A DNA stretch of 64,000 nt from Sporichthyaceae bacterium (GCA_036269075.1 DATASX010000078.1:15130-79129); one strand, 5' to 3'; counted from the stretch's first letter, positions 5,192-44,694 are shown. The notes: a model not told the origin generated them from the letters alone. A program made the numbers and translations.

Positions 5192-5298
5192 GAAGGGGTC
5201 TGGAACATGCCTACGTCCACGTACCGCCTCTTTCTCCGGGTGAGACGGCTAGCCTGCCCGCGTCGATACCGATCTGTCACCCCTACCGGGAGCCGACG

Positions 5299-17171: not shown

Positions 17172-17222
17172 GCCTGGCCGCCGTTCTGCCGCGGTGCCGG
17201 ATTCCGTTCTGCGGCAGCGTAC

Positions 17223-18833
17223 TCAGGACCGTTTGGCCTTACGCAGCTTGGCCAGGTCGCCCAGCAATGTCTGCGCCGCGAGCTTGCCCGGCAGCGCGCA
17301 CACGCCACCGGTCGGGTGCGTGCCGGCTCCGGACAAATACAGGCCGGGCACCGGGGTGCGGTACTTACCGAACCCGGGCGCCGGGCGCATCGGGCCGAAG
17401 CGGGTGATCAGCGGGTCGACGTGGTAGACGTTCCCGGCCGGGGCGTTGAACCGCTTCTCCAGGTCCGGGCCGCAGAGCACGGCACGGCCGATCTCATGGG
17501 TGTCGAGACCGACGTAGTACTGCGCGGCGTCCTTGAGCACCGTCCGGCCGACCTCGTCGCGCACCTCCTCCCACGGGGTGACCGGGTTCACCGGCGGGAT
17601 GCCCGACCACAGCCAGAAGGTGTCGCCGTCGGCGGGAGCCTGGGTCGGGTCGACGCGGCTCGGCACGATCGAGCAGTGCACCGGCATCGGGTGGTACCAC
17701 TCGCCGCGGACCGTCATGTCCCACGCCGCGCTCTGCTCCTCGAGGGTTGCCCAGGCGACGAGGATGCCGGTCGGGTCGAGCTTGTCCTTACGCCACTGCC
17801 GGTGCTTCTCCATCGTGATCTTGCCGCTGGTCGCGACGTTGATCTTCAGCGACGTCGCGTGGGTCTTGCGGATCGGGATGTCCTTGGCCCGCGCCTCGAG
17901 CTTGTGGTCCAGTGTGCCCGCGGGCAGCAGGCGGGTGAGCGTGATGATCGGGTTGCAGGTGGTCATGACGCCGTCGCGGGCGCGGATCTTCTCGCCGGAC
18001 TCCAGCGTCACACCGACGAGCCGGTCGCCCTCGAGGTTCAGTTCGGCGACGGGGGAATTCACCCGCACCTCGCCACCGTGGGCGAGGAAACACTGGTGCA
18101 GCGCCTTGGGCAGCGCTCCGGTGCCGCCGACCGGCATCGCGTTGGCGACGCGCTGCACGATGCCTAGGTAGATCATCGCCCAGGCCGTCATGTCCAGCTT
18201 CAACTGGGAGAACGCCGCCATCGCTGACAGCGCGCCCTTGGGCAGCTCCGTCTCGAAGGTCGAGTCCAGGAATTCGAAGTGGGACGCGCCGACGATGTGC
18301 TTGAGCCCCCACATCTTGCGCAGGTGCGGGACCGCCTTCGCGGTCTCCTTCAGGAATTCCTTGCTGAACGGTCGCGTCGGATGCACCTTCATGTACTCGA
18401 TGACCGGGCCGATCGCGTGGTACATCGCGTTGGACATGTCCAGCCACGCTCGCGCGTCCTTCGGCGAGAAGTAGCGCAGTTCGTCGGCGGTCCTGCTCGC
18501 GTCCTTCCAGATCGCCAGCGAGCTGCCGTCGGGCGCGAGCTGGATGTGCGCCGGGTCGACGGGGATCTCGCGCAGGCCGTACTTGTGCAGCTCCAGATCC
18601 TCGGCGACGCCGGAGAGCCGGAAGATGCCGGTCAGCTGGATCGCACCTTCGTTGAACAGGTGCGCCGGGGCCTCGGGGATGATCGGGTTGGTCGCGGTCA
18701 TGCCGCCGACCTGCGAACCCGCCTCCAGGATCAGCACCTGCTTGTTCGCCTTGGCGAGGTAGCAACCGGCGGTCAGGCCGTTGTGGCCTGCGCCGACGAC
18801 GATGACGTCGGGGTTCGGGGTGAGGGTGACCAT
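17223..18833 (-). CDS. phytoene-desaturase-family NAD(P)/FAD-dependent oxidoreductase
   Basis: Internal ATG at 18833 (MVTLTPNPDVIVVGAGHNGLTAGCYLA) is preceded by AAGGAGGA. C-terminal GLYLSGAGTHPTGGV. The 5' extension of the ORF track (to 19157) is Arg-rich shadow sequence that overlaps the TetR gene. Confidence 0.85.
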   Translation of the reverse strand: MVTLTPNPDVIVVGAGHNGLTAGCYLAKANKQVLILEAGSQVGGMTATNPIIPEAPAHLFNEGAIQLTGIFRLSGVAEDLELHKYGLREIPVDPAHIQLAPDGSSLAIWKDASRTADELRYFSPKDARAWLDMSNAMYHAIGPVIEYMKVHPTRPFSKEFLKETAKAVPHLRKMWGLKHIVGASHFEFLDSTFETELPKGALSAMAAFSQLKLDMTAWAMIYLGIVQRVANAMPVGGTGALPKALHQCFLAHGGEVRVNSPVAELNLEGDRLVGVTLESGEKIRARDGVMTTCNPIITLTRLLPAGTLDHKLEARAKDIPIRKTHATSLKINVATSGKITMEKHRQWRKDKLDPTGILVAWATLEEQSAAWDMTVRGEWYHPMPVHCSIVPSRVDPTQAPADGDTFWLWSGIPPVNPVTPWEEVRDEVGRTVLKDAAQYYVGLDTHEIGRAVLCGPDLEKRFNAPAGNVYHVDPLITRFGPMRPAPGFGKYRTPVPGLYLSGAGTHPTGGVCALPGKLAAQTLLGDLAKLRKAKRS

Positions 18834-18904
18834 GGCCACACGATCCTCCTTTCTGATTGCAGAATCAAGTTTGATATCGAAATCATCTGTGCGAAACTGA
18901 TCGG

Positions 18905-19549
18905 GTGACGGAGGACTCCGACGGCCTCGGCCGACGTGAGCGGCGAAAGCTCGAGGCCCGCGCCCGGCTGCTCGCCGCCACGCGGCAGATGCTCGCCGAG
19001 CAGGGCGCTGTCGACCTGAAAATCGCGGACATCGCCAAGGCCGCCGACGTCGGCTTCGGCACCTTCTACAACCACTTCGAGTCCAAGGACGCGATTGTCG
19101 AAGCGGTCCTCGCCGACGTGCTCGCCACTGCGGCGACGGCGATCGGCTCGTTCGCACTCGAATTTGCCGACCCCGCCGAGACCGCGTCCTTCTCCTACCG
19201 CCGGTTCGTGCTGTTCGCCCGCGAGGAGCCCGAGCTCGCGGCGGTCCTCACCAAGCTCGCCGGCGCCGAGGAGCTGTTCGAGGAGTCGTTACTCCCTTAC
19301 GCGCGCAAGACGCTCGAGCGTGGCCGCGAGACCGGACGCTTCGACATCGAGGACCTGGATCTCTGCCTGACATCGGTGGCCGCGGCCGCGTTCGCCGCGA
19401 TCAAGGGCGTGCTCGCCGGCCGTTTCGGCCCCGACGCCGACGCCGTCGGGGCGGAGATGATGCTGCGCGCGTTCGGGCTGACCAAACGGGAGGCACGAAA
19501 GATCGCCCGGGGACCGCTGCCCGCTCTGGACCTGCACGTCTCCGACTGA
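18905..19549 (+). CDS. TetR-family transcriptional regulator
   Basis: 214 aa. LLAATRQMLAEQGAVDLKIADIAKAADVGFGTFYNHFESKDAI. Divergent from the flavoprotein gene. Confidence 0.85.
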   Translation: MTEDSDGLGRRERRKLEARARLLAATRQMLAEQGAVDLKIADIAKAADVGFGTFYNHFESKDAIVEAVLADVLATAATAIGSFALEFADPAETASFSYRRFVLFAREEPELAAVLTKLAGAEELFEESLLPYARKTLERGRETGRFDIEDLDLCLTSVAAAAFAAIKGVLAGRFGPDADAVGAEMMLRAFGLTKREARKIARGPLPALDLHVSD

Positions 19550-19594
19550 GGGGCACCGCCCTGGTGCGCCACTCGCACGCGACGGTGCGCCGGC

Positions 19595-20164
19595 CTAACT
19601 GATCCCGCTGATCCCGGCCAGCTGGCGGCGAACGTCGCGCACCGGTGACCCCGGATGCAGCACCCGCCGCAGAGTGGTGCCGATCATGAACGCCAGCACT
19701 GCCTCGGACCGCACCTTCCAGTCCTTGACGCGGCAGTCCTTGAGCAGCCCGGCCAGGACCTCGCGCAAGGCGACCTCGATCGCGACCGCGGGCTCCCGGC
19801 GCCCGGCCCGCACGCAGGCGATCGAGTAGTCGAACCAGAGCATCGTGCGCTCGGGCTGCTCGCCCAGTGCCAGGTGGTACCGCTCGGTCACCGCCCAGAA
19901 CCGGGCGACCGGGTCGTCGACGCCGGCCGCGGTCGCCCGCAGGTCGGCGACGAAGTCGTGCAGATGCGAGGCCATCGCCGCATCGACGATCTCCTCCATC
20001 GAGGCGAAGTAGTAGTGGATCGCGCTGCGGCTGAACGCGCTCTCCTCCGCCAGCACACGGGCGGTGCACCCGGCGAGGCCCGCGCGCAGCAGGACGTCCT
20101 TCGCGGCGGCCACGATCTGGCGCTGCTTCTCGCGCTGATTGGGGGAGACCTCGGCGATGGTCAT
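19595..20164 (-). CDS. TetR-family transcriptional regulator
   Basis: Internal ATG at 20164 (MTIAEVSPNQREKQRQIVAAAKDVLLRAGLAGCTARVLAEESAFSRSAIHYYFASMEEI). 189 aa. The rest of the 593-aa ORF is shadow sequence. Confidence 0.8.
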   Translation of the reverse strand: MTIAEVSPNQREKQRQIVAAAKDVLLRAGLAGCTARVLAEESAFSRSAIHYYFASMEEIVDAAMASHLHDFVADLRATAAGVDDPVARFWAVTERYHLALGEQPERTMLWFDYSIACVRAGRREPAVAIEVALREVLAGLLKDCRVKDWKVRSEAVLAFMIGTTLRRVLHPGSPVRDVRRQLAGISGIS

Positions 20165-20182
20165 GGGCTCAGGGTAGACGTA

Positions 20183-20220
20183 TTGGGCCAGCTGGCCCAA
20201 GATATGGGCCAAGTGGCCCA
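20183..20220. promoter_or_regulatory. two tandem palindromic operators (TGGGCCA-N2-TGGCCCA)
   Basis: TTGGGCCAGCTGGCCCAA (20183-20200) is a perfect 18-bp palindrome. TGGGCCAAGTGGCCCA (20205-20220) has 7+7 matching arms. Both lie in the 60-nt gap between the divergent TetR and LLM genes. Confidence 0.6.
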
Positions 20221-20224
20221 ACCG

Positions 20225-21430
20225 ATGGAGGCGAGCCCGGTGCGCGACGTCAAGTACGGACCCTGCGGGCACATGTTCGACCCCGATCTGAACCGCGCGA
20301 TCGGAGCGCTGTACGAGCGGCAGGGCTACGACTTCATGATCTGGTCCGACCAGATGATGCTGACGATCCCGCGCTCGCTGTGGACGCCGGACCTGGTGCC
20401 GGCCAGCGCGGTATGGGACATCGACACGTTCATGGACACCTGGCCGCTGATGACCGACGTGGCCATCCACACCACCGAGATCCAGCTCGGTACGACGGTC
20501 TTCGACGCGATCCGCCGGCCGCCGGCGAACCTGGCACAGTTGGCCCTGACGCTGGATCACTATTCGAAGGGGCGTTTCTTTCTCGCGATGGGTGCGGGCG
20601 AGGTCAAGCAGTTCACGCCCTACGGCGTCGCGCACGACAAGCCGTTCGCGCACCTCGAGGAGTCCGTGAAAATCATCAAGCTGCTGATGGACGCCGAGGG
20701 TGTCGTGAACTACGACGGTCCGATCTGGAGCCTGCGGAACGCGGTGCTGCCGCTTATGCCCTACGGCGCGAAGCGTCCGCCGATCCTCATCGCGGGTGGT
20801 CCCGGCCGCGCGGTACGGATAGCGGCGACGATCGCCGACGGCTGGATCACCTACGTGCCGACCTGCGGCAGCCCGGACTGGTACGGCGAGCAGGTCGCCG
20901 AAGCGCGCCGCCTGGCCGAGGAGTCCGGCCGCGACCCCGACGAACTGATCTTCTACCTGCTCGCGATGAACATCATCGAGACCACGCAGGAACGGGTGGA
21001 CGCGCTGGTCGCGAGCCCGATCGCCCGTTGGGACTCGGCCGCGGTCATCCCCGGCCCGCAGTGCTACCGGGACTGGGGGATGGGCGAGCACCCGATCCGC
21101 CCGGACTACGCCTATCCGGCGCACCTGATCCCGACCGACTGGTCGCGTGCCGACGCTCTCAAGATCATCGACGCGACGCCGGTGGAGGTGGTCCGGCGGG
21201 CGCGGGCCTGTGGGACCTCGCAGCAGGTGGCCGCCCAGTTGCAGCCCTACATCGACGCGATCCCCGCAGCCAACCAGTGCTGGATCAACGTCATCAACTA
21301 CGCCAGCTTCCTCGGCGGCGGCGCGTTCGGGGATCCGGACTCGCAGGTGGACCTGGTGCTGGAGACCTGCAACCATCTGCGCGAGATGAACGGGCAGCCG
21401 GTCAAGCGTTCCGCACTCGCGGCGCCCTGA
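20225..21430 (+). CDS. LLM-class (luciferase-like, possibly F420-dependent) oxidoreductase
   Basis: Internal ATG 20225 (MEASPVRDVKYGPCGH...). About 401 aa with luciferase-like features (LALTLDHYSKGRFFLAMGAGE ... ADGWI). The start is uncertain; GTG 20240 is also possible. Confidence 0.75.
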   Translation: MEASPVRDVKYGPCGHMFDPDLNRAIGALYERQGYDFMIWSDQMMLTIPRSLWTPDLVPASAVWDIDTFMDTWPLMTDVAIHTTEIQLGTTVFDAIRRPPANLAQLALTLDHYSKGRFFLAMGAGEVKQFTPYGVAHDKPFAHLEESVKIIKLLMDAEGVVNYDGPIWSLRNAVLPLMPYGAKRPPILIAGGPGRAVRIAATIADGWITYVPTCGSPDWYGEQVAEARRLAEESGRDPDELIFYLLAMNIIETTQERVDALVASPIARWDSAAVIPGPQCYRDWGMGEHPIRPDYAYPAHLIPTDWSRADALKIIDATPVEVVRRARACGTSQQVAAQLQPYIDAIPAANQCWINVINYASFLGGGAFGDPDSQVDLVLETCNHLREMNGQPVKRSALAAP

Positions 21431-21432
21431 CC

Positions 21433-22305
21433 ATGCCCAGTGCCGGGTCGTTCGACCTGCCTCAGCACCCGGACGGGCTGAGGTTTCCGCACACGTCGCA
21501 GATCGTTGTCACCTCGGTGATGGGCGCGCTGGTTCTGGTCTTCGCCTGCTACGCCGTGCGCGAGATCGTCCGGCATCGCAGCTACCTGCTCGCGCTTCTA
21601 CTGGTCGGCGGCGGAATCTCCTACCTCAACGAGCCGATCGATGACGTCCTCGGCTGCCTCTACCACCCCGTCGACGGTCAGTGGACGGTGCTGGACACCT
21701 TCGCCAAGGTGCCGCTGTGGGGCCTGGGCATCTACATCGTGTTCTTCGGCGGCATGCCCTATCTGATCCTGAAGGCCCTTGACCGCGGCGTGACGCGACG
21801 TCAGTTATGGCAGTGGGTGGGCATTCTGTTCGTGGTCGACGTAGCTGTCGAGATCCCGATCCTGGCCCGCGACATGTACGTCTACTACGCCGACCCGCCC
21901 TTCGACCTCGCCGGCTTCCCGCTCTACTGGCTGTTCATCAACGTCGGCGGACCGTTCGAGGTCGCGGTGCTCCTCTACGCGGCCCGTCACCTGTTCACCG
22001 GATGGCGCGCGGCCTACCTGCTCGCGTTGCCGATGGTGTGCAACGCCGCGGGCAGCATCGCCGTGGGCTGGCCGATCTACAGCGCGCTGAACGCGCAGGC
22101 CTCCGAACCGGTGAAGTGGGTCGCCGGCGCCGCCACGATCGCGCTCGGCTACCTGTTGCTCGACCTCACCATCACCTGGGCCGCGCGCAAGTCAGGTCAG
22201 GCAGAACCCGACCGCGACGTCGCGTACAGCGTGTTCCAGACGACGTCGGTGGCCGCGTCCAGCAGCAGTTCCGCCTCGTCGCTGTCGGCCTTGTCCACCA
22301 ACTGA
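21433..22305 (+). CDS. polytopic integral membrane protein, unknown function
   Basis: ATG 21433 lies 3 nt after the LLM stop. About 290 aa with roughly 7 hydrophobic segments. The Ser-rich tail overlaps the convergent TetR gene by about 109 nt. Confidence 0.55.
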   Translation: MPSAGSFDLPQHPDGLRFPHTSQIVVTSVMGALVLVFACYAVREIVRHRSYLLALLLVGGGISYLNEPIDDVLGCLYHPVDGQWTVLDTFAKVPLWGLGIYIVFFGGMPYLILKALDRGVTRRQLWQWVGILFVVDVAVEIPILARDMYVYYADPPFDLAGFPLYWLFINVGGPFEVAVLLYAARHLFTGWRAAYLLALPMVCNAAGSIAVGWPIYSALNAQASEPVKWVAGAATIALGYLLLDLTITWAARKSGQAEPDRDVAYSVFQTTSVAASSSSSASSLSALSTN

Positions 22306-22865
22306 TAGAGACCGCGCTCGAGCATCCAGACGATCCACTTCGCGGTGCGCACCGGGTCCAGCGTCGCGTCCGCACTGCCCTGGCTCTGCGCTTCCGCGAG
22401 GTGCACCGCCAGGCCCTCGGAGACCTGGCCCATGAGCAAGCCCTGCTGGGTGCGAACGCGCTCGTCGTAGGTGGCCACCTCGACCATCGCGCCGAAAATG
22501 ATGTGCGCGCGGCGATAGGTGTCGAAGGGCACCTGGATCCGGGCGCGCAGGTCGGCCTTGTTCCCGTCGTGCGGGAACTCCCACCAGTTGTCCCCGCTGG
22601 CGACCACGTCCGCGACCGCGTCGCCGGCCATCGCGGCCAGCAGGTCGATCTTGTCGTCGAAGTAGTTGTAGAACGCCGACCGGGACATGCCGCCGGCCTT
22701 GATGATCCGCTCGACGCTGAGGTCCCCGTAGGGCTCGCCATCGGCGGCGAGCTTCTCGATCACCGGAATCAAGTGCCGGCTCAGCTGGCGCCGCCGGTCC
22801 TCGCGGGACACGGCAAAGGGCCGGGCGGCGGGGGCATCGACGGACTTCTCAGCGGACTGGGGCAC
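22197..22865 (-). CDS. TetR-family transcriptional regulator
   Basis: 222 aa. VIEKLAADGEPYGDLSVERIIKAGGMSRSAFYNYFDDKIDLL. Confidence 0.85.
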   Translation of the reverse strand: MPQSAEKSVDAPAARPFAVSREDRRRQLSRHLIPVIEKLAADGEPYGDLSVERIIKAGGMSRSAFYNYFDDKIDLLAAMAGDAVADVVASGDNWWEFPHDGNKADLRARIQVPFDTYRRAHIIFGAMVEVATYDERVRTQQGLLMGQVSEGLAVHLAEAQSQGSADATLDPVRTAKWIVWMLERGLYQLVDKADSDEAELLLDAATDVVWNTLYATSRSGSA

Positions 22866-22900
22866 GAATCCAGGGTACCGATTTGTCCGCCGGCGTACAG

Positions 22901-22928
22901 CGTGTCTTGACAGACAGACACCGTGTCT
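22901..22928. promoter_or_regulatory. inverted/direct repeat cluster, candidate TetR operator
   Basis: CGTGTCT (22901-22907), N8, AGACAC (22916-22921), then CGTGTCT (22922-22928). The inner TGTCT-TGAC-AGACA spans 22903-22916. It lies between the divergent TetR (22865) and the flavoprotein (22934). Confidence 0.4.
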
Positions 22929-22933
22929 CCACC

Positions 22934-24295
22934 ATGGACACCATGTCCGAACAGACCGTCCCAGCGGCGGCCGACCCGGTCTTCGTCATCGGCGCGGGAC
23001 CGTCCGGGCTCGCTGCTGCCTACCGACTGCACCAGGCCGGCCGGCGCGTCGTCGTGCTGGAATCCCGCGACCGGGTGGGCGGTCAGCTGCTCACCGTCCG
23101 ACGGGACGGATTCCTCATGGAGGCCGGCACGACGATCCTCCCGGAGGCCTACGGCAGCGTCATGAAGCTGGTTCGCGACCTTGGGATGGCCGACGAGCTG
23201 ATCCCGGCCAACTCGTTGATGGGCTTCATCCGCGGGAGCCAGATGCACTACCTGCGCGCGGACAAGTTGGCGCTGGACGCGGCCCGGACCAAGCTGCTTT
23301 CGACGCGGTCCAAGCTGAAGGTGGCCAAGCTGGTCCGGGACGCGTTCCGGGTGCGCAAGCTGCTGTCCTACGAGGACCTCTCGGTCGCGGGCAAGTACGA
23401 CGTGGAGACTCCGGCGCAGTACTGCGAACGTCGCGGTCTGGACGGCGAGCTCTACGACTACCTGATCGAACCGACTGTGCGTGGTGGCGCCGGGGTTCCC
23501 GCCGAGATGATCTCGGTGGTCGAGTTCTTGTTCCTCTGGCAGAAGGTGCTCGGGACCAAGCTGTTCGCGTTCCGCGACGGCTACTCCTCGTTCCCCCAGC
23601 GGTTGGCCGCGGCACTGCCGGACGTGCGGTTGAACTGCAACGCGGTCGAGGTGGTCGAGACCGGCGACGGCGTGGAGGTCACCTATCTCGGCCCGGACGG
23701 GTTGATCACCGAACGCGCCGCGGGGGCGGTGGTGAGCTCGATGGGCAACCTGGTTCCGGACCTGGTGCCGCAGCTGGAGCCGGACCGAGCCAAGTTCCTG
23801 CGCGAGCTCAACTACACCTCGACGATGTCGATAAACCTTGCGCTGTCGCGAATCCCGCAGTGTCCCGCCTCGTTCGTCGTGGTGCCGAAGCCGGTGTCGG
23901 AGGGTCTGTTCGCGGTCATTCTCGAGCACAACAAGGCACCCGGGCGGGCGCCTGCCGGCAAGGGCCTGATCTCGCTGTTCGTCATGAACCAGTGGGCGAT
24001 CGACCGGATGGACGCGACCGACGACGAGGTTCTCGACGCCGCGCTGGCCGAGCTGGACAAGGTCCTGCCGGGCGTTCGCGCCGACGTCGAGTTCAGCCGG
24101 ATCAATCGCTGGTACCCGGTGCTGGTCTACAGCCACCCGGGTCTGTACCGGGACCTCGGCCGCTTCCATGCGGCCCGGGATCTGACCAGTCGGATCCACC
24201 TGGCGGGCTCGTACAACTCCTCCGGCAACGTCAACACCGCCACCACGGCCGGCGAGCGGGCCGCTCGTGAACTGCTGGCCGCCCTGCCGCGCTGA
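22934..24295 (+). CDS. FAD-dependent oxidoreductase (amine-oxidase/protoporphyrinogen-oxidase-like fold)
   Basis: ATG 22934 (MDTMSEQTVPAAADPVFVIGAGPSGLAAAYRLHQAGRRVVVLESRDRVGG). C-terminal HLAGSYNSSGNVNTATTAGERAA. Confidence 0.8.
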   Translation: MDTMSEQTVPAAADPVFVIGAGPSGLAAAYRLHQAGRRVVVLESRDRVGGQLLTVRRDGFLMEAGTTILPEAYGSVMKLVRDLGMADELIPANSLMGFIRGSQMHYLRADKLALDAARTKLLSTRSKLKVAKLVRDAFRVRKLLSYEDLSVAGKYDVETPAQYCERRGLDGELYDYLIEPTVRGGAGVPAEMISVVEFLFLWQKVLGTKLFAFRDGYSSFPQRLAAALPDVRLNCNAVEVVETGDGVEVTYLGPDGLITERAAGAVVSSMGNLVPDLVPQLEPDRAKFLRELNYTSTMSINLALSRIPQCPASFVVVPKPVSEGLFAVILEHNKAPGRAPAGKGLISLFVMNQWAIDRMDATDDEVLDAALAELDKVLPGVRADVEFSRINRWYPVLVYSHPGLYRDLGRFHAARDLTSRIHLAGSYNSSGNVNTATTAGERAARELLAALPR

Positions 24296-24322: not shown

Positions 24323-25762
24323 TTGTCCCCCGATCGAGGAGCGTGTCCGTTGGCCGGCCGCCACACCGCACGACGGCGCCGAACCTGGCGTCGCGCCGCC
24401 GTCCTGGCCGGCGCATCCGTCCTGGTCGTCAGCGCCGGTGCCGCGCTTGCCGTCGCCCCGCCGGCCCAAGCCGCGGACAACAGTTTCGACGCTGTCGCCA
24501 GCGCCTACGGCATCAACAACGGGATCTCCAACCCGTCGTTCCCGCTGAACCTGGTGCTGACCGGGTCCGGCCCGGTGTCCTCGGCTCACCTGACCAGCGT
24601 CGGTGGCTCGGACGCGTTCGCGTCGTTCCCTTATCCGGGCGACACGATCGTCGGTGCGCCCGGACTGATGTCGGGGTTGTTCGGGGTCTCGTTCCCGAAC
24701 TACCCGCTGTACGTGGCGACGAGCGCCGGTGAGGCACCTCGGTCGGCGAACTACCCGGGCATCACGCTGAACTCGCGCAGCGACGCGTTGGTCGCGGAAT
24801 CCCGCGCACTGGTCGGGACCGATGTCAGCGGTTTCGAATCCACCTCGCGGATCGAGGTGGACGGGGACCGCGGCGTCACCTCGCAGGCTCGGACGGTGTT
24901 CAAGACCCTGCAGTTCGGCGACGTGTTCACGCTGTCCGGCGTGCGGTCGCTGGCCACGGTCGTCGCCGACGGCAACACCGGAAAACTCACCCGCTCCTCG
25001 GAGATGAGCATCGGCGCGATCACCGTTCCCGGGATGCGGATCGTGATCCCGAAGCAGACGCCCGGCACGGTGCCGCTGCCGATCCCGGTGCCGGGCTTCG
25101 GCCAGGTGCAGCCGCTGAAGTTTCCGCCGATGCCGGTTCCGTCCGGCGGGCAGACGCTCGACGCGCCGGCCCTCGGCTTCACCGACGGCGTTTTCACGGC
25201 GACCTTGCCCGGGCAGTCGGGCCACGACTACGCGATCCCGTCCGGGCCGGTGCTGAAGGCTTTCGCCGACCGGGGAATGAAAGTGACGTTCCAACAGGCC
25301 GCCGACACCACGAACGGCGTCGTGGCCCCGGCCGTCACGTTCACCACCGATTTCCCGGCCCCGCCGGCGAATCCGTACTACAACGGGGCCACCCACGCGA
25401 CCTACACCCTCGGCGGATCCCTGGCCGAGGTCGCGTTCGACGTGCCCAAGCCCGTTACCGCCCTCGGCCCGGCGCCGGCGGCGGATTCCCCGACCAGCAC
25501 TGGTGCCGTGCCTGCGGCCGTCCCGATCCCGGGTGTCTTCGCACCCGGTCTGCCGTCGGTCACCGATCCTGTCCCCGCGGCCGGCCCGCCGGTTCGGACC
25601 GTGCCGGCCTCCGCGCAGCCGGCCGACCTCGTCGCGCTGCGGTCACCGCTGCTGGTGGCCGACACGCAGAACATCTACCTCGCCGTTGTCGCGGTCGCGA
25701 TTGCTGTCCTCGCGGTCGGTACCGGCCTTCGCCGTCTGGGGGTTCTCCGGCCATGGAAGTGA
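24323..25762 (+). CDS. module A protein 1: secreted, C-terminally membrane-anchored envelope protein (unknown family)
   Basis: Arg-rich n-region (ARRRRTWRR) with a hydrophobic signal ending APPAQA|AD. About 330-aa domain, then a Pro/Ala stalk, then a C-terminal TM (IYLAVVAVAIAVLAVGTGL) and a basic tail. Paralog of 55976..57424. The start is uncertain: TTG 24323, or TTG 24350 behind GAGGAG. Confidence 0.75.
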   Translation: MSPDRGACPLAGRHTARRRRTWRRAAVLAGASVLVVSAGAALAVAPPAQAADNSFDAVASAYGINNGISNPSFPLNLVLTGSGPVSSAHLTSVGGSDAFASFPYPGDTIVGAPGLMSGLFGVSFPNYPLYVATSAGEAPRSANYPGITLNSRSDALVAESRALVGTDVSGFESTSRIEVDGDRGVTSQARTVFKTLQFGDVFTLSGVRSLATVVADGNTGKLTRSSEMSIGAITVPGMRIVIPKQTPGTVPLPIPVPGFGQVQPLKFPPMPVPSGGQTLDAPALGFTDGVFTATLPGQSGHDYAIPSGPVLKAFADRGMKVTFQQAADTTNGVVAPAVTFTTDFPAPPANPYYNGATHATYTLGGSLAEVAFDVPKPVTALGPAPAADSPTSTGAVPAAVPIPGVFAPGLPSVTDPVPAAGPPVRTVPASAQPADLVALRSPLLVADTQNIYLAVVAVAIAVLAVGTGLRRLGVLRPWK

Positions 25763-26058
25763 TGACCGCGCTGCGTACGCAGTGGGACCGCACCGGTGCG
25801 ATCGTGGCTGTGATCATCGGTCTGGTCTCGCTGCTGCTGGGCTATCTGGGCGTCAGCGACACCGAGTACATCGTCAAGCAGATGCCGTACATCATCTCCA
25901 ACGGGTTGTTCGGCCTGTTCATGCTCGGCATCGGCACGGCCTTGTGGCTCTCGGCCGACCTGCGCGACGAATGGCGTGAACTGCGTGCGCTGCGCATCGC
26001 CGTCAACGAGCACGGCATCGCGGCCCGGACCGATGACGAGGGCACCGCGAGCCGATGA
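25753..26058 (+). CDS. module A protein 2: conserved 2-TM miniprotein (unknown family)
   Basis: 101 aa. LRTQWDR...GLVSLLLG (TM1), PY..SNGL.G.F.LG (TM2), SADLRDEWRELR. It overlaps the protein 1 stop within ATGGAAGTGATGA. Paralog at 57415. Confidence 0.75.
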   Translation: MEVMTALRTQWDRTGAIVAVIIGLVSLLLGYLGVSDTEYIVKQMPYIISNGLFGLFMLGIGTALWLSADLRDEWRELRALRIAVNEHGIAARTDDEGTASR

Positions 26059-26591
26059 CGACCGCTGTGCGCGAACCGCGCGTGCGCCGCGCCGCAACCC
26101 GAACCGGGGGCCCACGGGTGCCGGCCTACGTGACGGCGTCGAAACGGCGCTCCCGGGGCGAGGTGGTGCTCGGCGATCGCCCGTGGGGTCGCCGCGACCG
26201 GGACATCGCGATCGGCGGGAGCGTGCTCGGCCTGGCCGGGCTCGCGGTGTGCAGTTGGGGCGGCGCCGGTGAGGTCGACCTGGCAACCCAGATGCGTTGG
26301 CTGCTCGGGGGAATCGGCGCCGTCGTGGTCTCCGCCCTCTGCCTGGTCCACTGGCTGTTGGCGGGCTTGCGGACCGTGCGGATCGAGATGGCCCGGGTGT
26401 TCAGCACGATCACGCCGAACCGATCTGTGGTGGGTGCCGCGGCGACCGGCGGCCGGGTCGTGACCGTGGCCGGCATGGTGCGCTTCCACCGACCCGAGTG
26501 CCCGCTCGTGGCGGGCAAGGCGATCCGCGTGCTCGACCCGGCCGACGCTGCCGCCGAGGGGTTGCGTCCCTGCGGAGCGTGCGAGTCATGA
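26055..26591 (+). CDS. module A protein 3: 2-TM membrane protein with C-terminal Ada-like H/C3 metal-binding motif (unknown family)
   Basis: 178 aa. Arg-rich N-terminus, two TM segments, C-terminus VRFHRPECPLVAGKAIRVLDPADAAAEGLRPCGACES. ATGA overlaps on both sides. Paralog at 57725. Confidence 0.75.
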   Translation: MTTAVREPRVRRAATRTGGPRVPAYVTASKRRSRGEVVLGDRPWGRRDRDIAIGGSVLGLAGLAVCSWGGAGEVDLATQMRWLLGGIGAVVVSALCLVHWLLAGLRTVRIEMARVFSTITPNRSVVGAAATGGRVVTVAGMVRFHRPECPLVAGKAIRVLDPADAAAEGLRPCGACES

Positions 26592-28543
26592 ACGCCTACA
26601 TCCCCTTCATCGTCACGGGATTGATCGTCGGGTCGATCTACGGCCTGTCCGCGATGGGCCTGGTACTGACCTACAAGACCTCCGGGTTGTTCAACCTCGG
26701 CCACGGCGCGATCTGCGCTGCCGCCGCATTCGTCTTCTACGAACTGCGCCAGGTGCACGGCGTCCCGTGGGCAGTGGCAGCCGTTGTCACGGTCGTTGTC
26801 TTCGGCGCCGCGACCGGCCTGGTGCTGGAACGCCTCGCCGGTGCGCTGTCCGGGGTGACCACCACGTACAAGATCGTCGCCACCGTCGGTCTGCTGGTTG
26901 CCGTCCGCTCGATCGTGATCCTGATCTGGGGATCCGAGCAGCTCACCTTCGAGCCGTTCCTGCCACAGGGCAAGGCATTCGGGGTCTCCAACGTCTCGGT
27001 CAGCTGGGACAACGTCATCGACATGGCCCTCGGGGTCGCCGCGGCTCTCGGCCTGTCGGTCTTCTTCCGAACCTCTCGGCTGGGCGTCGCGATGCGTGGC
27101 GTCGTCGACAACCCGGCGCTGCTCGACATGGCAGGCACCGCGCCGGCGAAGGTGCGCCGGACCGCATGGATCATCGGCTCGATGTTCGCGGCCGTCTCCG
27201 GTGTGCTGTTCGCCTCGGTGACTTTCCAACTCGACGTGAACGTGCTCTCGCTGCTGGTCGTCCAGGCGTTCGGGGCCGCGGCGATCGGGCGGTTCACCTC
27301 GATCCCGATGGCCTTCGTCGGCGGCCTGACCGTCGGCCTGGTGCAGAAGTTGGTGTCCAAGGAGTTCGCCGGGGAAGTGGTGCTGCGCGGCATCGATCTG
27401 AACGTGCCGTTCATCATCCTGTTCATCGCGATGCTGGTGACTCCCAAGAGTCGCCTGCAGGAGATCGGGCGCAAGGTGAAGGATCGGGCGCCGACTGCCG
27501 GCTCGTTCAGCGTCAGGACCCGCGGCGCCGGCTACGCCGTCCTGCTGGGCGCCGCGCTACTCGTGCCACACCTGGTCGGCACTCGACTCTCGCTCTACAG
27601 CACCGGGCTGACCCAGGTGATCCTCTTCCTCTCCCTCGGCCTGCTGGTGCGGACCTCCGGACAGATTTCCTTGTGCCACGTGGGTTTCGCCGCGGTCGGT
27701 GCCGCCGCCTTCGGACACATGCTGCACGACGGCCTGCCCTGGGGCGTCGCACTGTTGCTCGGCGGCCTGTTCGCTGTCCCGGTCGGGGCGTTCATCGCGA
27801 TCCCCGCGATCCGCCTGTCCGGGCTGTTCCTCGGCCTGGCCACTCTCGGGTTCGGGATCCTGCTCGCGCAGTACGCCTACGGGCAGAGCTGGATGTTCGG
27901 GTTCGGTCGGCTGGACACCCGGCGCCCACACTTCGGCGGCCTGGACTCCGACACGCGTTACTACTACTTCGTGCTCGCCGTCGCGCTGGCCTGCGTCGTC
28001 GCCGTCGTGCTGGTGGAACGCTCCCGGCTCGGCCGACTGCTGCGCGGCCTGGCCGACTCACCGGCGGCGCTGACCTCGCTCGGGACCAACCTGAACATGA
28101 TCCGGGTGATGGTGTTCTGTCTGTCGGCGTTCCTGGCCGGGATCAGCGGGGCGATGTACGCCTCACTGTTCGGCAGCGTCAATCAGGACAGCTTCAACTA
28201 TCTGCAGTCGCTGGTTCTGCTCGCGGTACTGGCCATCTCCGGTCGCGGCACGGTGACCAGCGCGGTGCTCGGCGCCCTGTTGCTCTACGTGCTGCCCGGC
28301 TACATCGACAACCCGGACCACCTCTCGTTGCTGCAGGTCGGCTTCGGCCTGGCCGCGATCCTCGCCGCCGCGCTGTCGCAGGGCCAGTTCGCCGAGGTAG
28401 TCGGACGGGTCGCCGCGGCCGGACGACAACGAACGCTCAGCCCCTGGCGCGACCGCATGGACCCGGTGCACCAGTTGCCCCCCGAACTGCTCGTCAGCTC
28501 CGCGACCCACGAGCCTTTGCTGACCACTGGAGTACATCGATGA
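26588..28543 (+). CDS. fused LivH/LivM-type branched-chain-amino-acid-family ABC permease
   Basis: ATG 26588 (MNAYIPFIVTGLIVGSIYGLSAMGLVLTYKTSGLFNLGHGA is a LivH-like N-terminus). The second half is LivM-like (GQISLCHVGFAAVGAA..., IRLSGLFLGLATLGFG). 651 aa in a single polypeptide. Confidence 0.9.
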   Translation: MNAYIPFIVTGLIVGSIYGLSAMGLVLTYKTSGLFNLGHGAICAAAAFVFYELRQVHGVPWAVAAVVTVVVFGAATGLVLERLAGALSGVTTTYKIVATVGLLVAVRSIVILIWGSEQLTFEPFLPQGKAFGVSNVSVSWDNVIDMALGVAAALGLSVFFRTSRLGVAMRGVVDNPALLDMAGTAPAKVRRTAWIIGSMFAAVSGVLFASVTFQLDVNVLSLLVVQAFGAAAIGRFTSIPMAFVGGLTVGLVQKLVSKEFAGEVVLRGIDLNVPFIILFIAMLVTPKSRLQEIGRKVKDRAPTAGSFSVRTRGAGYAVLLGAALLVPHLVGTRLSLYSTGLTQVILFLSLGLLVRTSGQISLCHVGFAAVGAAAFGHMLHDGLPWGVALLLGGLFAVPVGAFIAIPAIRLSGLFLGLATLGFGILLAQYAYGQSWMFGFGRLDTRRPHFGGLDSDTRYYYFVLAVALACVVAVVLVERSRLGRLLRGLADSPAALTSLGTNLNMIRVMVFCLSAFLAGISGAMYASLFGSVNQDSFNYLQSLVLLAVLAISGRGTVTSAVLGALLLYVLPGYIDNPDHLSLLQVGFGLAAILAAALSQGQFAEVVGRVAAAGRQRTLSPWRDRMDPVHQLPPELLVSSATHEPLLTTGVHR

Positions 28544-30069
28544 GAACCCGTAACGGCACGGCGGTCGCGCTGGTCGCCACGAGCGCATTGCTCCTGACCG
28601 GATGCGGCAACCGCGTCTCGGAGGCCCGCATCGAGGCCGCCAACTCCGCCGTCATGAAGCTCAGTGACCAGCAGCTCAAGGACGCCGGGATCAACCCCGC
28701 CACGGCGCCGCAAACCACCGACAGTGCCGAGACCACAGCCACTGCGACCAACTCGGCCGCCGTGGCCACTGCCGCGGCGGCGCCGGTTCGCGCCGGCGCC
28801 CCGGTCACGGCAGGCGCGGCAGCCGGCGGGGTCCCCGCGGCGGCCGGGACCGGCAGCACGGCCGCCACCGTCGCCGCGGCGGGCGCGCCCAAGGCCCATA
28901 CCGTCGGCGCGGCGCTCACCACCGCGTCGGGTGCCTGCACGAGTTCGCTGCCGCCGGTGTTGCTCGGCCAGACTGGCGTGTTCAGCGGGTTCATCGGCGC
29001 CGTGGGCGCAGGCGCCCGGCCCGGGCTGCAGGTCTGGGCCAAGGACCTCAACTCCCGTGGTGGGCTGGCCTGCCACCCCGTCGAACTGATGCAGCTCGAC
29101 GACCAGTCCGACCCGGCCAAGGTCACCGCGAACGTGCTGGACCTGGTCCAGAACAAGAAGGTCGCGGCGCTGATCGACGCCTACGTCCCGATCACCGTCG
29201 GCCCGTACCGGGAAGCCGCCGCGAAGTTCAAGATGCCCACCATCGGTGGGGACAACATCGACCTGGACTGGAACAAGGATCCCTACCTGTTCCCGGTCGG
29301 GGCCTCGCCACTGGGCACCTACCTGGGCAGCATCAAGTCCGCCGCGGAGTCCGGACACTTCAAGAAGTTCGGCATCCTCTACTGCGTCGAGGCCACGATC
29401 TGCGGCGTCCTCAAGGAGTCGACGACCTCCAAGGGTGGGTTGGCCGACCAGGCCGGTGTGCAGACCGTCTACAGCGCGCCGTTCTCCTTGACGCAGCCGG
29501 ACTTCACCTCCGAGTGCCAGAACATGAAGAACGCCGGCGTGCAGTTCGCGTTCGTGGGCGGCGACGGCTCGGCGGTGTCCCGGGTGGCCCGCGCGTGCAA
29601 CAGCCTCGGCTTCAACCCGACCCTGAGCACGGTGAGCCTGGCTGCCGGATCGGCTGTCCAGAGTGACAAGTTGGTGGCCGGCGACGGGCTCTACCTCGGT
29701 TCGTTCCTCGCCCCGTTCCCGGCCGACGACACCCCTGGCCTGAAGGAGTACCACGCCGCGTTCGAGCGCTACGCGCCGACGCTCACCCTCGACGGCGCCT
29801 CGATGATCGCCTGGTGCTCCGGCAAGTTGCTGGAGGCGGCGGTGAACACTCTCGGAGCCCAGGCGCGCTCCGGCCCGCTGACCACGGCTCTGATCATGAA
29901 GGGCCTGGGCAACATCAACGGCGAGACACTCAACGGTCTCAGCCCGCCGATGACGTTCAAACCGGGTCAGCAGTTCGCGCCGGCCATCAACTGCTACGCC
30001 GTGATCGCCCTCACCGCCCGCGACGTCAAGTTCCGGGCGCCCGAGGGCACGAAGTTCCACTGCCAGTGA
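28540..30069 (+). CDS. lipoprotein substrate-binding protein (Leu/Ile/Val-type fold) with long low-complexity linker
   Basis: ATG 28540 overlaps the permease stop (ATGA). Lipobox LLLTGC. An Ala/Thr/Gly/Pro linker of about 110 aa precedes the SBP domain. Confidence 0.85.
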   Translation: MRTRNGTAVALVATSALLLTGCGNRVSEARIEAANSAVMKLSDQQLKDAGINPATAPQTTDSAETTATATNSAAVATAAAAPVRAGAPVTAGAAAGGVPAAAGTGSTAATVAAAGAPKAHTVGAALTTASGACTSSLPPVLLGQTGVFSGFIGAVGAGARPGLQVWAKDLNSRGGLACHPVELMQLDDQSDPAKVTANVLDLVQNKKVAALIDAYVPITVGPYREAAAKFKMPTIGGDNIDLDWNKDPYLFPVGASPLGTYLGSIKSAAESGHFKKFGILYCVEATICGVLKESTTSKGGLADQAGVQTVYSAPFSLTQPDFTSECQNMKNAGVQFAFVGGDGSAVSRVARACNSLGFNPTLSTVSLAAGSAVQSDKLVAGDGLYLGSFLAPFPADDTPGLKEYHAAFERYAPTLTLDGASMIAWCSGKLLEAAVNTLGAQARSGPLTTALIMKGLGNINGETLNGLSPPMTFKPGQQFAPAINCYAVIALTARDVKFRAPEGTKFHCQ

Positions 30070-30079: not shown

Positions 30080-30907
30080 GTGATGAGCGCGCAAACGAGA
30101 TCGAGCGACGTGGACGGCTTGGCCGTCGAGAAGCTGACGGTCCGCTTCGGCGGTCTGACGGCGGTCGACGGGCAGACGCTGACCGCTCCGCGCGGCCGGA
30201 TCACCGGGCTCATCGGGCCCAACGGTGCCGGTAAGACCACGACGTTCAATGCCTGCACGGGCGTGGTCCGGCCCAGTGCCGGTCGGGTTTCCCTGTTCGG
30301 TCAGGACATCACCACCTGGTCGCCGGACGCCCGGGCACGCAACGGCATGGGCCGAACCTTCCAACGGATGGAACTGTTCGACACCCTCACCGTGCGGGAG
30401 AACGTCCGGCTCGGCAAGGAGGCCGGTCTGGCGGGCAGCAATCCTTGGCGGGCGTTGCGATCCAGCCGTGCGCAGGCCGCGGCCGTCCGTCGCCTGGCCG
30501 ACGACGCGATGGACATGGTGGGAATCGGCGATGCGGCCAACCGGCGCCCGGCCGATCTGAGCACCGGCGCGCGCCGGTTGGTCGAACTGGCCCGCTGCAT
30601 CGCGGGCGGTTTCACGGTGATGCTGCTCGACGAACCCTCCTCGGGCCTGGACGGGACCGAGACCGAACAGTTCGGCGGGGTGCTGCGTCGCCTGGTGGCC
30701 GAGCGCAACGTGGCGATCCTGATCGTGGAGCACGACATGGAGTTGGTCATGACCACGTGCAACTACATCCACGTCCTGGACTTCGGCAGGCCGATCTTCG
30801 AGGGCACGGCGCGCGAGGTCGCGTGCTCCCCGTTGGTACGCGCCGCCTATCTGGGTACGGAGGCCGACGGCCTGGACGAACTCGCCGGCACCGGGGCGGT
30901 CGGCTGA
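30080..30907 (+). CDS. ABC transporter ATP-binding protein, LivG-like
   Basis: 275 aa. Walker A GPNGAGKTT, signature LSTGARRLVELAR, Walker B MLLDEPSSGL. Confidence 0.9.
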   Translation: MMSAQTRSSDVDGLAVEKLTVRFGGLTAVDGQTLTAPRGRITGLIGPNGAGKTTTFNACTGVVRPSAGRVSLFGQDITTWSPDARARNGMGRTFQRMELFDTLTVRENVRLGKEAGLAGSNPWRALRSSRAQAAAVRRLADDAMDMVGIGDAANRRPADLSTGARRLVELARCIAGGFTVMLLDEPSSGLDGTETEQFGGVLRRLVAERNVAILIVEHDMELVMTTCNYIHVLDFGRPIFEGTAREVACSPLVRAAYLGTEADGLDELAGTGAVG

Positions 30908-31605
30908 TGCTGAGGCTGGACTCGATCCGTGCCGGTTACGCCGGTTCCACCGTGCTGCGCGGCGTCAGTCTGCTGGTGCCCCCGTCCAGCGTGGTCGCGT
31001 TGTTGGGTCCGAACGGGGCCGGCAAGACCACGTTGCTGCGGGTGGCCTCGGGCCTGCTGCGTCCGACCTCCGGCCAGGTCCTGCTCGACGGCCGGGACGT
31101 CAGCCGGTACGCCCCGCACAAGTTGGTCGAGCGCGGGGTCTGCCACGTGCCGGAGGGCCGCGGCGTGTTCCCGTCGCTCTCGGTGCGGGAGAACCTGATC
31201 CTGCATTCCAGACCCGGCACGGAATCCGAGTCGGTGGAGAAAGCGGTGTCGGCGTTCCCGCGGCTGGGGGAGCGGCTTTCCCAACAAGCGGGCACGATGA
31301 GCGGCGGCGAGCAGCAGATGCTCGCGCTGGCGCGGGCGTATGTGCAGAACCCCCGCTTCGTGCTGCTCGACGAGGTCTCGATGGGCCTGGCCCCGAAGAT
31401 CGTCGACGAGATCTTCGACTTCCTTCGGCTGCTGGCTTCGCAGGGCGCCTCCTTGCTGCTCGTCGAGCAGTACGTGACCCGCGCGCTGGAGGCCGCCGAC
31501 TACGTCTACCTGCTCGGCCGGGGAACCGTGACCTTCTCCGGCGAGCCGGGAGAACTCGACGCCGACGCGTTGGCCGAGCAGTACATCGCGGCCGCCCACA
31601 CCTGA
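30907..31605 (+). CDS. ABC transporter ATP-binding protein, LivF-like
   Basis: ATG 30907 overlaps the LivG-like stop. Walker A GPNGAGKTT, VPEGRGVFPSLSVRENL, signature MSGGEQQMLALAR, Walker B VLLDEVSMGL. Confidence 0.9.
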   Translation: MLRLDSIRAGYAGSTVLRGVSLLVPPSSVVALLGPNGAGKTTLLRVASGLLRPTSGQVLLDGRDVSRYAPHKLVERGVCHVPEGRGVFPSLSVRENLILHSRPGTESESVEKAVSAFPRLGERLSQQAGTMSGGEQQMLALARAYVQNPRFVLLDEVSMGLAPKIVDEIFDFLRLLASQGASLLLVEQYVTRALEAADYVYLLGRGTVTFSGEPGELDADALAEQYIAAAHT

Positions 31606-31617: not shown

Positions 31618-32346
31618 ATGCACCAGATGGTGTTCCAGCGGGTCTGTGCGTGGAGCGGAATGGTCTGTGTGACCCTGTTCTTCGCGGCGTTCGGGTTCAT
31701 GCACTTCATCCCGCCGATCACCCCAGGCAGGTCGGCCGAACAGATCGCACACCACTACCAGGAGCACACCAACAGCATCCGCTTCGGCGCCCTGCTGATG
31801 CTGTTCAGCAGCATGTTCTACGCCGCCTTCACCGCAGTGGTCTCCGCTCAGATGCGCCGCATCGCGGGTATCCACCCGGCAGCGATCTACACGCAGCTCG
31901 CGGCCGGCGCGTTCGCCTGCCTGACCTTCCTGGTCCCCGGCCTGATCTTCGAGGTGGCCGCGTTCCGGCCCGACCGCGACCCGTCCCAGACCCTGCTGCT
32001 CAACGACATGGGCTGGATCTTCATGGTCATGCCGTGGATGCCGTTCCTCACGCAGAACTGGACCTTCGCCTACGCCATCCTCTCCGACAACCAGGATCGG
32101 CCGGTCTTCCCGCGCTGGCTCGCGTACTGCAACGTCTGGGCGATCATCATCTTCTCCCCTTCGGTCGCCCTGCCGTTCTTCAAGCACGGAGTCTTCGCCT
32201 GGAGCGGCCTGTTCGTGGTCTGGATCCCGGCCTTCGCGTTCATCGCCCAATTCGGCGTGAACACCGCGATGTTGCTACGTGCGATCGACCGGGAGGAGGC
32301 CGAGGTCCGGTCGACGGGGCCGGAACGCGAACTGGTCCCTGCTTAG
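31618..32346 (+). CDS. integral membrane protein, unknown function
   Basis: 242 aa with about 6 hydrophobic segments. It starts 12 nt after the LivF-like stop, behind GAGGAGAAGAAGG. Confidence 0.6.
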   Translation: MHQMVFQRVCAWSGMVCVTLFFAAFGFMHFIPPITPGRSAEQIAHHYQEHTNSIRFGALLMLFSSMFYAAFTAVVSAQMRRIAGIHPAAIYTQLAAGAFACLTFLVPGLIFEVAAFRPDRDPSQTLLLNDMGWIFMVMPWMPFLTQNWTFAYAILSDNQDRPVFPRWLAYCNVWAIIIFSPSVALPFFKHGVFAWSGLFVVWIPAFAFIAQFGVNTAMLLRAIDREEAEVRSTGPERELVPA

Positions 32347-37491: not shown

Positions 37492-37519
37492 GGCTGACTC
37501 CAGGAAAACTGAGGGGTGA

Positions 37520-42298: not shown

Positions 42299-42429
42299 GG
42301 CCCGAGGCTGACATGCAGGTCAGGGCCGGCGAGAACGCCGCTGCCCCAGAATCTGGAGCCGCGTACAAAGCGCGGCGAGCCGGGCGCGGGACGCAGCGCG
42401 GTGAGCTGTGTCACGGTCGTGCGGTGGCC

Positions 42430-42969: not shown

Positions 42970-43033
42970 GCTTGCCCATCCCGTTGCGCCGCACCGTTCT
43001 CTGCCTCGCCCGGTACCGAAGGGACAACCCGAC

Positions 43034-44662: not shown

Positions 44663-44694
44663 CCGGCGATCACCGACCCCGGACCGGCGGCCGG

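Follow-up and report, generated by a model that had tools for sequence, protein, structure and literature searches.

Binding-protein-dependent ATP-binding cassette (ABC) importers are usually described as a substrate-binding protein (SBP) together with two transmembrane domains and two nucleotide-binding domains. The classical hydrophobic amino acid uptake transporters (HAAT), LivHMGF with LivJ or LivK (TC 3.A.1.4), UrtABCDE and BraDEFG, have a permease, an SBP and two ATPases homologous to those of a gene cassette, designated copy A, in a 64,000-nucleotide stretch of DNA from a Sporichthyaceae bacterium (GCA_036269075.1 DATASX010000078.1:15130-79129). The whole stretch is called the window here, and positions are counted from its first letter. 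The cassette departs from the classical plan in its fusion of LivH with LivM, in a lipoprotein SBP whose tether runs to about 100 residues, and in three additional membrane-protein genes, P1, P2 and P3, that come before the permease gene and overlap it. Accessory genes resembling this trio are absent from the curated Liv and Urt models searched (NCBIfam), and none was found in the literature searched. The core of the transporter is unremarkable for the HAAT family; the trio lies outside any described Liv, Urt or Bra system. We put at about 0.6 the probability that P1, P2 and P3 are lineage-specific accessory subunits, coupled both functionally and physically to a subfamily of HAAT-type importers, a reading drawn from comparative sequence analysis.

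Two other kinds of ABC transporter bear comparison. Mce systems are actinobacterial ABC importers that have extra envelope-spanning accessory proteins, occur as multiple paralogs, and lie near TetR-regulated genes of lipid or xenobiotic catabolism. The likeness to Mce transporters with their Mam/Mas proteins and LucA/OmamA is one of concept only, with no similarity of sequence or fold to P1-P3. Pfam searches found neither an MCE domain nor a Mce-associated membrane protein domain in P1-P3 or in ten P1 homologs, and the window system, unlike Mce, is SBP-dependent with a HAAT-type permease. The likeness of P1 to LptC in LptB2FGC is also conceptual. LptC crosses the membrane once and carries a beta-rich domain outside the cytoplasm; through its transmembrane (TM) helix this accessory protein associates with the ABC transporter and modulates it. 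LptB2FGC, however, exports its substrate, LptC is anchored at its N-terminus and folds as a beta-jellyroll, and Foldseek found no LptC match for P1 (best TM-score <=0.23).

Linkage of the trio to a fused LivHM permease

A preliminary description of the window, made from its sequence, had proposed that the trio is an accessory or regulatory sub-complex of the importer, and had suggested a survey of actinobacterial gene neighbourhoods for co-occurrence with LivHM. The loci surveyed were the window, nine contigs around P1 or P2 homologs, and 42 loci from GTDB representatives (one genome per species) found by the P2 motif DLRD[EQ]WRE, with hidden Markov model (HMM) scans over all six-frame open reading frames (ORFs). 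Since the GTDB scan used one exact peptide pattern, the counts are lower bounds. In every locus where the contig allows, the order is P1-P2-P3-fused LivHM (48 cassettes scored, in about 17 genomes), and nowhere in about 700 kb of related loci, again where the contig allows, was the trio found without LivHM or LivHM without the trio. The SBP genes (one to four per cassette) and the ATPase genes are placed more freely, before the trio and permease, after them, or on the opposite strand. The P3 stop overlaps the permease start as ATGA or GTGA in 42 of 48 cassettes, the P2 stop overlaps the P3 start as [AGT]TGA in 39 of 48, and P1 and P2 overlap or lie no more than 2 nt apart in 27 of 33. At one locus, L051, the trio is placed between an SBP gene and the permease gene within a single gene string. 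Synteny, conserved overlaps and the arrangement at L051 bear out the accessory part of the earlier proposal; its mechanistic suggestions are taken up below as conjecture. The conserved stop/start overlaps suggest that the trio is made in fixed proportion with the permease.

The genes themselves are sound. All genes of copy A have a G+C content at third codon positions (GC3) of 0.83-0.92, whole-window G+C being about 69%, and ratios of nonsynonymous to synonymous substitution (dN/dS) against the ortholog at L001 are 0.31 (P1), 0.16 (P2), 0.43 (P3), 0.14 (permease) and 0.21 (SBP). Together these values indicate that P1, P2 and P3 are genuine coding genes under purifying selection rather than chance ORFs, as had been supposed from their coding bias. 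The junctions reported earlier, a 10-nt overlap of P1 with P2 and a shared ATGA at P2/P3, P3/permease and permease/SBP, can be read directly from the sequence, and the fused LivHM, SBP and LivG/LivF-like ATPases said to lie downstream are confirmed by matches to BPD_transp_2, Peripla_BP_6, ABC_tran and BCA_ABC_TP_C. A gap of about 13 nt separates the SBP gene from the LivG-like gene, and the LivG/LivF junction is TGATG.

The families are sizeable and multi-copy, a point absent from the preliminary description. A word-seeded search with P1 gave only 21 clusters, but an exhaustive profile search gave 1118 representatives at 50% identity with E <=1e-3, 869 of them at E <=1e-10. A profile search with P2 gave at least 1115 clusters at 90% identity, with the cultured species Sporichthya polymorpha among the sources, which carries at least two cassettes. 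Hosts of the trio are Sporichthyaceae, Acidimicrobiia/Acidimicrobiaceae, one 'Mycobacteriales' metagenome-assembled genome (MAG), and unclassified Actinomycetota MAGs. Cassettes can be multiple within a genome, with at least eight or nine in MFD01275.bin.2.123 and six in Sporichthya sp. MGR_bin378.

Cassettes vary in the remaining components. Seven loci (L037, L039, L041, L042, L044, L046 and L047) have two to four tandem SBP genes, yet only a single P1, P2, P3 and permease, which suggests that several binding proteins feed one translocator. In about a third of cassettes, among them copy B of the window (described below), L013, L014, L027, L035, L037, L039, L041, L042 and L046, the one ATPase gene nearby is LivF-like and a LivG-like gene is absent; different cassettes may share the second ATPase in trans.

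The proteins P1, P2 and P3

The trio had been described as belonging to no characterised family, and this held in all searches made. P1, P2 and P3 of both copies found nothing above threshold in Pfam, NCBIfam or PADLOC; those of copy A had no Pfam match at E up to 1, ten diverse P1 homologs contained no Pfam domain, and the PADLOC anti-phage models gave no match to any of the six proteins at E up to 0.1. Nor did any of the three match PDB sequences above threshold; profile searches with P1, with P3 and with its C-terminus returned noise only. Homologs in databases are named 'hypothetical protein' or carry plainly spurious automatic labels (P3 is 100% identical to 'hypothetical protein VHU88_13385 [Sporichthyaceae bacterium]'), and no published description of P1-P3, or of the DUF6233 family discussed below, was found in the literature searched.

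The start of P1 is most likely the TTG at 24350, which has a GAGGAG ribosome-binding site 8 nt to its 5' side and gives a product of 470 residues, the length of the database homolog P0001; a start at 24323, giving an ORF of 479 residues, is less likely. All the features ascribed to P1 in the preliminary description are present: a signal peptide (residues 1-42, 24350-24475) ending AQA|AD, an ectodomain of about 324 residues (43-366, 24476-25447) that is all-beta in the model described below, a disordered Pro/Ala stalk at about residues 367-439, and a C-terminal TM helix (440-462, 25667-25735), after which comes the basic tail LRRLGVLRPWK. The stalk ranges from 64 to 90 residues in 24 homologs. 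The TM region has near-invariant residues Y443, G464 and V465 as well as the conserved tail, and is thus more than a passive anchor. Invariant residues of the ectodomain are Gly, Pro, Ala, Tyr, Asn, Ser and Thr. Alignments of 22 and 82 sequences contain no conserved Asp, Glu, His, Cys, Lys or Arg in the ectodomain, and for this reason the possibility that P1 is an enzyme was rejected.

An AlphaFold2 model of the P1 ectodomain built from 82 diverse sequences has pLDDT 91.1 and pTM 0.85, and comprises an N-terminal meander of long antiparallel strands (10-15 residues each), a loop rich in Pro, and, as its C-terminal part, a small alpha/beta subdomain. Conservation is highest in the block AFASFPYPGD...PG...PxYPL, which is the loop modelled with least confidence. 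The best Foldseek match of the ectodomain in PDB had E 1.6e-3, TM-score <=0.23 and root-mean-square deviation >=17 A, the matches being outer-membrane barrels only, and comparison of the model with BFVD found no relative. Superposition with a TM-score of about 0.5 or higher was not obtained on the LptC/LptA beta-jellyroll, LolA-like folds, lipocalins or porin/FadL barrels. On the strength of this model, the ectodomain is apparently a new fold, with no recognisable structural relative in PDB or BFVD. Porin/FadL matches of full-length P1, from an AlphaFold2 model built from 22 sequences with pLDDT 64, were discarded as meaningless.

P2 has, as described earlier, two TM segments and then a charged C-terminal helix. 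The helices, at about residues 15-34 and 47-66, form a hairpin whose predicted topology, read from the sequence by the positive-inside rule, places both termini in the cytoplasm. The motif G-x-S-x-T...Q-x-P-Y in the outer loop and the cytoplasmic motif LW-x-SADLRD-x-WREL (25951-25986) are both invariant, and SADLRDEWRELR, which follows the two TM helices, is the most conserved motif of the P2 family. P2 is as conserved as the permease, with 63% versus 54% identity between copies A and B and dN/dS of 0.16 versus 0.14.

P3 begins with a basic, Arg-rich segment that is poorly conserved and not kept across paralogs. There follow a P2-like two-TM hairpin at about residues 44-113 (26184-26393), a variable linker, and a 46-residue C-terminal domain, predicted to be cytoplasmic (residues 133-178, 26451-26588), that holds the H-x3-C-x23-C-x2-C motif noted before. 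The hairpins of P2 and P3 are homologous: hhalign aligns them over 66 columns with a probability of 95.9% (E 6e-9), and their HMMs match each other reciprocally in most loci. P2 and the N-terminal half of P3 are thus, at the level of their sequences, paralogous two-helix membrane hairpins, a relationship that the preliminary description had missed. An interpretation of P2 and P3 as split-off N-terminal helices of LivM (DUF3382) was rejected, there being no Pfam match. The best of the PDB sequence matches lay on the TM hairpin, where the P3 profile matched 7qhm_J at E 0.022, a subunit named 'hypothetical membrane protein' in the respiratory supercomplex of Corynebacterium glutamicum; the match is probably compositional, and 7qhm_J is, like P3, a small actinobacterial protein with TM helices, in its case an accessory subunit.

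In the C-terminal domain of P3, residues M141, H145, C149, G154, K155, L170, C173 and C176 are invariant among 16 sequences, and ligand spacing across homologs is x3 / x19-24 / x2. Outside the four metal-ligand positions P3 evolves fast (dN/dS 0.43), and only the C-terminus aligns between copies A and B. Compared with Ada_Zn_binding (PF02805), the copy A C-terminus scores 14.6 bits (E 0.035) where the cut-off is 23, and one of ten members matches; compared with DUF6233 (PF19746), copy B falls exactly on the cut-off with 27.6 bits (E 3e-6), two other members reach E about 0.1, and copy A gives no match. The last 46 residues of P3 resemble these families in spacing and in the local pattern [C/H]-R-P-x-C ... 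R-P-C-x-x-C. They differ from Ada, which has four Cys as C-x3-C-x26-C-x2-C, in that the first ligand is His, and from both Ada and DUF6233 in being borne on a membrane hairpin rather than joined to a helix-turn-helix (HTH) or methyltransferase domain; seven of ten aligned P3 domains match neither family. By sequence the P3 C-terminus is marginally recognisable as a His-substituted relative of the small metal-binding domains of Ada/DUF6233 type, and H145, C149, C173 and C176 would bind a zinc-type metal, with which the predicted cytoplasmic location is compatible. Formal assignment to Ada was rejected for a score below the Pfam threshold, and assignment to the ZAS anti-sigma factors (H-x3-C-x2-C) was rejected on ligand spacing.

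Proposed role of the trio and its alternatives

The SBPs of these cassettes stand on long tethers. Counted only from the lipid-modified Cys to the folded domain, the tether is 79-143 residues (median 104) in 48 of the 51 SBPs in which a lipobox was found, and about 72% of it is Ala, Pro, Thr, Ser or Gly. In copy A the Ala/Thr/Gly/Pro-rich tether ahead of the Peripla_BP_6 domain is about 113 residues long; in copy B that domain begins at residue 155. The closest annotated relatives of the permease in a plasmid collection are LivH-LivM-LivG triple fusions from Rhodococcus and Streptomyces with 41-48% identity, differing from the cassettes described here, where the ATPases are separate proteins. 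Two Rhodococcus plasmid loci were inspected (R. jostii RHA1 pRHL2, RHA1_RS42240, and Rhodococcus sp. ZPP pRZP2; permease identity 41-47% over 80-98%). Their permeases, like those of the cassettes, adjoin genes for an SBP, a LivF-like ATPase, a TetR regulator, and beta-oxidation enzymes or oxidoreductases. No P1, P2 or P3 was found at either locus, and the SBP linker is just 12-20 residues after the lipobox. A search with P2 of 72,556 plasmids found no match. Trio and long tether thus occur together as lineage-specific features, not intrinsic to fused LivHM, and the long tethers of P1 and the SBPs, which are similar in length, along with the lack of both trio and tether in Rhodococcus, favour capture of substrate across a thick envelope over a membrane-tethered sensor, the two hypotheses of the preliminary description.

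Neighbouring genes point to what might be transported. Among 148 flanking ORFs are 20 TetR regulators, eight acyl-CoA dehydrogenases, eight pirins, five histidine phosphatases, and four each of short-chain dehydrogenases/reductases (SDR), luciferase-like monooxygenases, amine oxidases, P450s and acyltransferases; thioesterases also occur, PucR- and IclR-type regulators are found at cassettes in addition to TetR, and the Rhodococcus relatives are located in beta-oxidation clusters. In experiments on Rhodopseudomonas palustris, most of the COG0683 SBPs labelled 'branched-chain amino acid' proved to have aromatic, fatty or dicarboxylic acids as ligands and not Leu, Ile or Val (PMC3223731). Gene context and the R. 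palustris results make diverse organic or hydrophobic compounds the likely substrates. To judge by the gene context, fatty acids, dicarboxylic acids, aromatic acids or amines are more probable than branched-chain amino acids, and the substrates probably differ between paralogous cassettes.

If P1, P2 and P3 are accessory subunits of the importer, the following mechanism can be proposed. P2 and P3 would form a heterodimeric four-helix unit, each hairpin packing on the pseudo-symmetric LivH or LivM half of the permease, with the invariant helix of P2 (SADLRDEWREL) and the His/Cys3 domain of P3 adjoining the ATPases or coupling helices, which they might stabilise or gate. P1 would join the complex through its conserved C-terminal TM helix and short tail, and its stalk of some 65-90 residues would lift the ectodomain to the height in the wall of SBPs on tethers of about 100 residues. 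There the FPYPGD...PxYPL loop, the best-conserved feature of the P1 surface, may bind an invariant partner (the docking face of an SBP, the outer loops of P2 and P3, or the permease) rather than a variable substrate, and P1 may serve as a scaffold, or hand-off station, from wall-embedded SBPs to the translocator. We infer the P2/P3 heterodimer, the ATPase contact and the scaffold role of P1 from the features described above; the permease has no relative among PDB sequences at E up to 1e-3, and so offers no template for reasoning about how extra helices would dock. A bolder version, which we think doubtful, sees in monoderm Actinomycetota a wall-spanning machine of seven or more components and a new class of importer, in which P1 and the P2/P3 pair are obligatory and hydrophobic substrates are collected at the outer face of the wall and passed on to the membrane translocator.

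Several observations weigh against coupling of the trio to the importer in this manner. Fused permeases in Rhodococcus work without the trio, which is therefore not mechanistically essential to the permease fold. Core subunits that are tightly packed do not usually drift as P3 does outside its metal ligands. Cassettes with two to four different SBPs and one P1 argue against one-to-one pairing specific to an SBP. The substrate class is read from gene neighbourhood, the nearest solved SBPs being distant structural-genomics entries labelled 'Leu/Ile/Val-binding' (only E 1e-8).

Part of this evidence would suit other explanations as well. The trio might be a signalling or regulatory module, making the system a 'trigger transporter' in which P1 senses the wall or the occupancy of SBPs, P2 and P3 relay the signal across the membrane, and P3, by its zinc-type domain and its basic N-terminus, binds DNA, RNA or a regulator and so controls nearby catabolic genes. 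We regard this as unlikely. It agrees with the location of the trio 5' of the permease, with the Arg-rich N-terminus of P3, with metal ligands that are invariant while the rest of P3 drifts, as for a small sensor or switch, and with the weakly Ada-like C-terminus of P3, the zinc-binding domain of Ada being a DNA-binding module. That 46-residue domain, however, lacks an HTH partner and does not reach the cut-off for Ada, the basic N-terminus varies among paralogs, and cassettes already have dedicated soluble regulators (TetR in 20 of 148 neighbours, plus PucR- and IclR-types). Coupling to the permease in 42 of 48 cassettes implies proportionate production, which is unusual for a regulator, and the presence of up to nine cassettes in a genome would demand equally many membrane-bound regulators acting in parallel.

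Assembly or stability factors form another alternative, and one that we find quite unlikely: the trio would insert or stabilise the 20-TM fused permease, or position the long-tethered SBPs, in a role analogous to that of LucA/OmamA for Mce transporters. Strict synteny with the permease, but not with SBP or ATPase genes, would be expected of such helpers, as would the function of related permeases without the trio in another lineage and the loose conservation of P3. P2, on the other hand, is conserved like the permease, down to an invariant cytoplasmic motif, the stop/start overlaps suggest amounts matched to the permease, and a large, conserved, stalk-mounted ectodomain such as that of P1 is hard to explain in an insertion helper. 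P1 could also be taken for a generic surface protein, with its signal peptide, beta domain, Pro-rich stalk and TM anchor, and P1-P3 have no detectable homology to transporter components; the trio might then be an independent envelope module that shares the operon, for example a wall-associated structural or adhesive protein with membrane partners. The absence of either partner without the other in the related loci, the duplication of the trio along with the permease into as many as nine paralogous cassettes per genome, and the trio embedded between SBP and permease genes at L051 make this very improbable.

Were the trio found in a complex with the importer, it would constitute a new class of subunit for a textbook transporter family, place three protein families of considerable size (P1 and P2 with about 1,100 clusters each) in a first functional context, and provide a handle on how substrates move from outside a thick wall to the membrane in monoderm actinobacteria. 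A wall-spanning machine, if real, would be the functional equivalent of Mce systems, assembled from parts unrelated to theirs. The system should be experimentally tractable, since the cultured S. polymorpha carries cassettes.

The two cassettes and their surroundings

Features of both cassettes in the window are listed in Table 1. The copy A string runs on the + strand from 22883 to at least 31605, and its permease also has partial NCBIfam matches to LivH, LivM and UrtB/C. The amine oxidase gene, which ends 54 nt 5' of P1 and is kept before P1 in orthologs at L001/L007 and L006, is probably the first gene of the operon. The divergent TetR/EthR-like gene has the same arrangement in the L001 ortholog. 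Copy B, a diverged second cassette at 55976-63232, has only a LivF-like ATPase gene adjacent, with no LivG-like gene next to it.

Table 1. Genes of cassette copies A and B in the window, with positions counted from its first letter
Gene or product	Coordinates	Strand	Evidence and remarks
Copy A			
TetR/EthR-like regulator	22197..22865	-	Pfam TetR_N E 8e-7, and EthR_C; divergent from the copy A string
Flavin amine oxidase / PPOX-like oxidoreductase	22883..24295	+	Pfam Amino_oxidase E 5e-47
P1, 470 aa	24350..25762	+	
P2, 101 aa	25753..26058	+	
P3, 178 aa	26055..26591	+	
Fused LivH+LivM permease, 651 aa	26588..28543	+	BPD_transp_2, two stretches, E 2e-53
Lipoprotein SBP	28540..30069	+	Lipobox LLTGC; Peripla_BP_6 E 3e-37
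LivG-like ATPase	30083..30907	+	Pfam ABC_tran and BCA_ABC_TP_C (E 5e-7)
LivF-like ATPase	30907..31605	+	Pfam ABC_tran
Copy B			
P1', 482 aa	55976..57424	+	38% identity to P1 by tblastn; P1 HMM E 4e-160
P2', 107 aa	57415..57738	+	63% identity to P2; overlaps P1' by 10 nt
P3', 199 aa	57725..58324	+	Only the C-terminus aligns with copy A P3; C-terminal domain at the Pfam DUF6233 cut-off
Fused LivHM permease, 650 aa	58321..60273	+	54% identity to copy A; BPD_transp_2 E 1.5e-52
SBP, 526 aa	60270..61850	+	Peripla_BP_6 E 6e-43; lipobox; 42% identity to copy A SBP; long N-terminal tether
TetR regulator	61851-62531	+	Between the SBP and LivF-like genes, 4-nt overlaps
LivF-like ATPase	62528-63232	+	

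Directly after the LivF-like gene of copy A lies an ORF of 242 residues (31618-32346, + strand) with high GC3, a GGAG-type ribosome-binding site and no Pfam match, which may belong to the operon; it is followed by genes for an alpha/beta hydrolase (32425-33327) and a GAF-PucR regulator (33388-35223). Two further ORFs with high GC3 and no Pfam match occur at 21807-22910 (+) and 63244-63966 (-). Elsewhere, one cassette subtype (L002/L005) has before P1 a SnoaL_2 protein and a conserved protein of about 283 residues without a Pfam match (at 9061-9912 in L002, for example), and SnoaL_2 also adjoins a cassette in S. polymorpha (L048).

Taken as a whole, the window resembles an island of genes for the catabolism of hydrophobic or xenobiotic compounds. 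It carries genes for two P450s, luciferase-like monooxygenases, a flavin/Baeyer-Villiger-type monooxygenase, two amine oxidases, an enoyl-CoA hydratase, an SDR, a fumarylacetoacetase and CocE/S15-type hydrolases, with oxidative and catabolic genes at 4151-6558, 16164-21430, 36685-37665, 41057-46527 and 54169-55632. An orphan Peripla_BP_6 SBP (2700-4109, +), 32% identical to the copy A SBP and with no permease gene nearby, adjoins a luciferase-like monooxygenase (4151-5248, -) and a P450 (5194-6558). Upstream of copy B, a membrane protein with four DUF347 repeats (53466-54326, -) is encoded between the fumarylacetoacetase and a fused full-length ABC exporter of 1254 residues (48790-52557, -), with two ABC_membrane and two ABC_tran domains, that is unrelated to the cassette. 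The G+C content of the window peaks at 0.73 at 40001-42000, against about 0.69 overall, in a segment that overlaps the P450 gene at 41057-42319.

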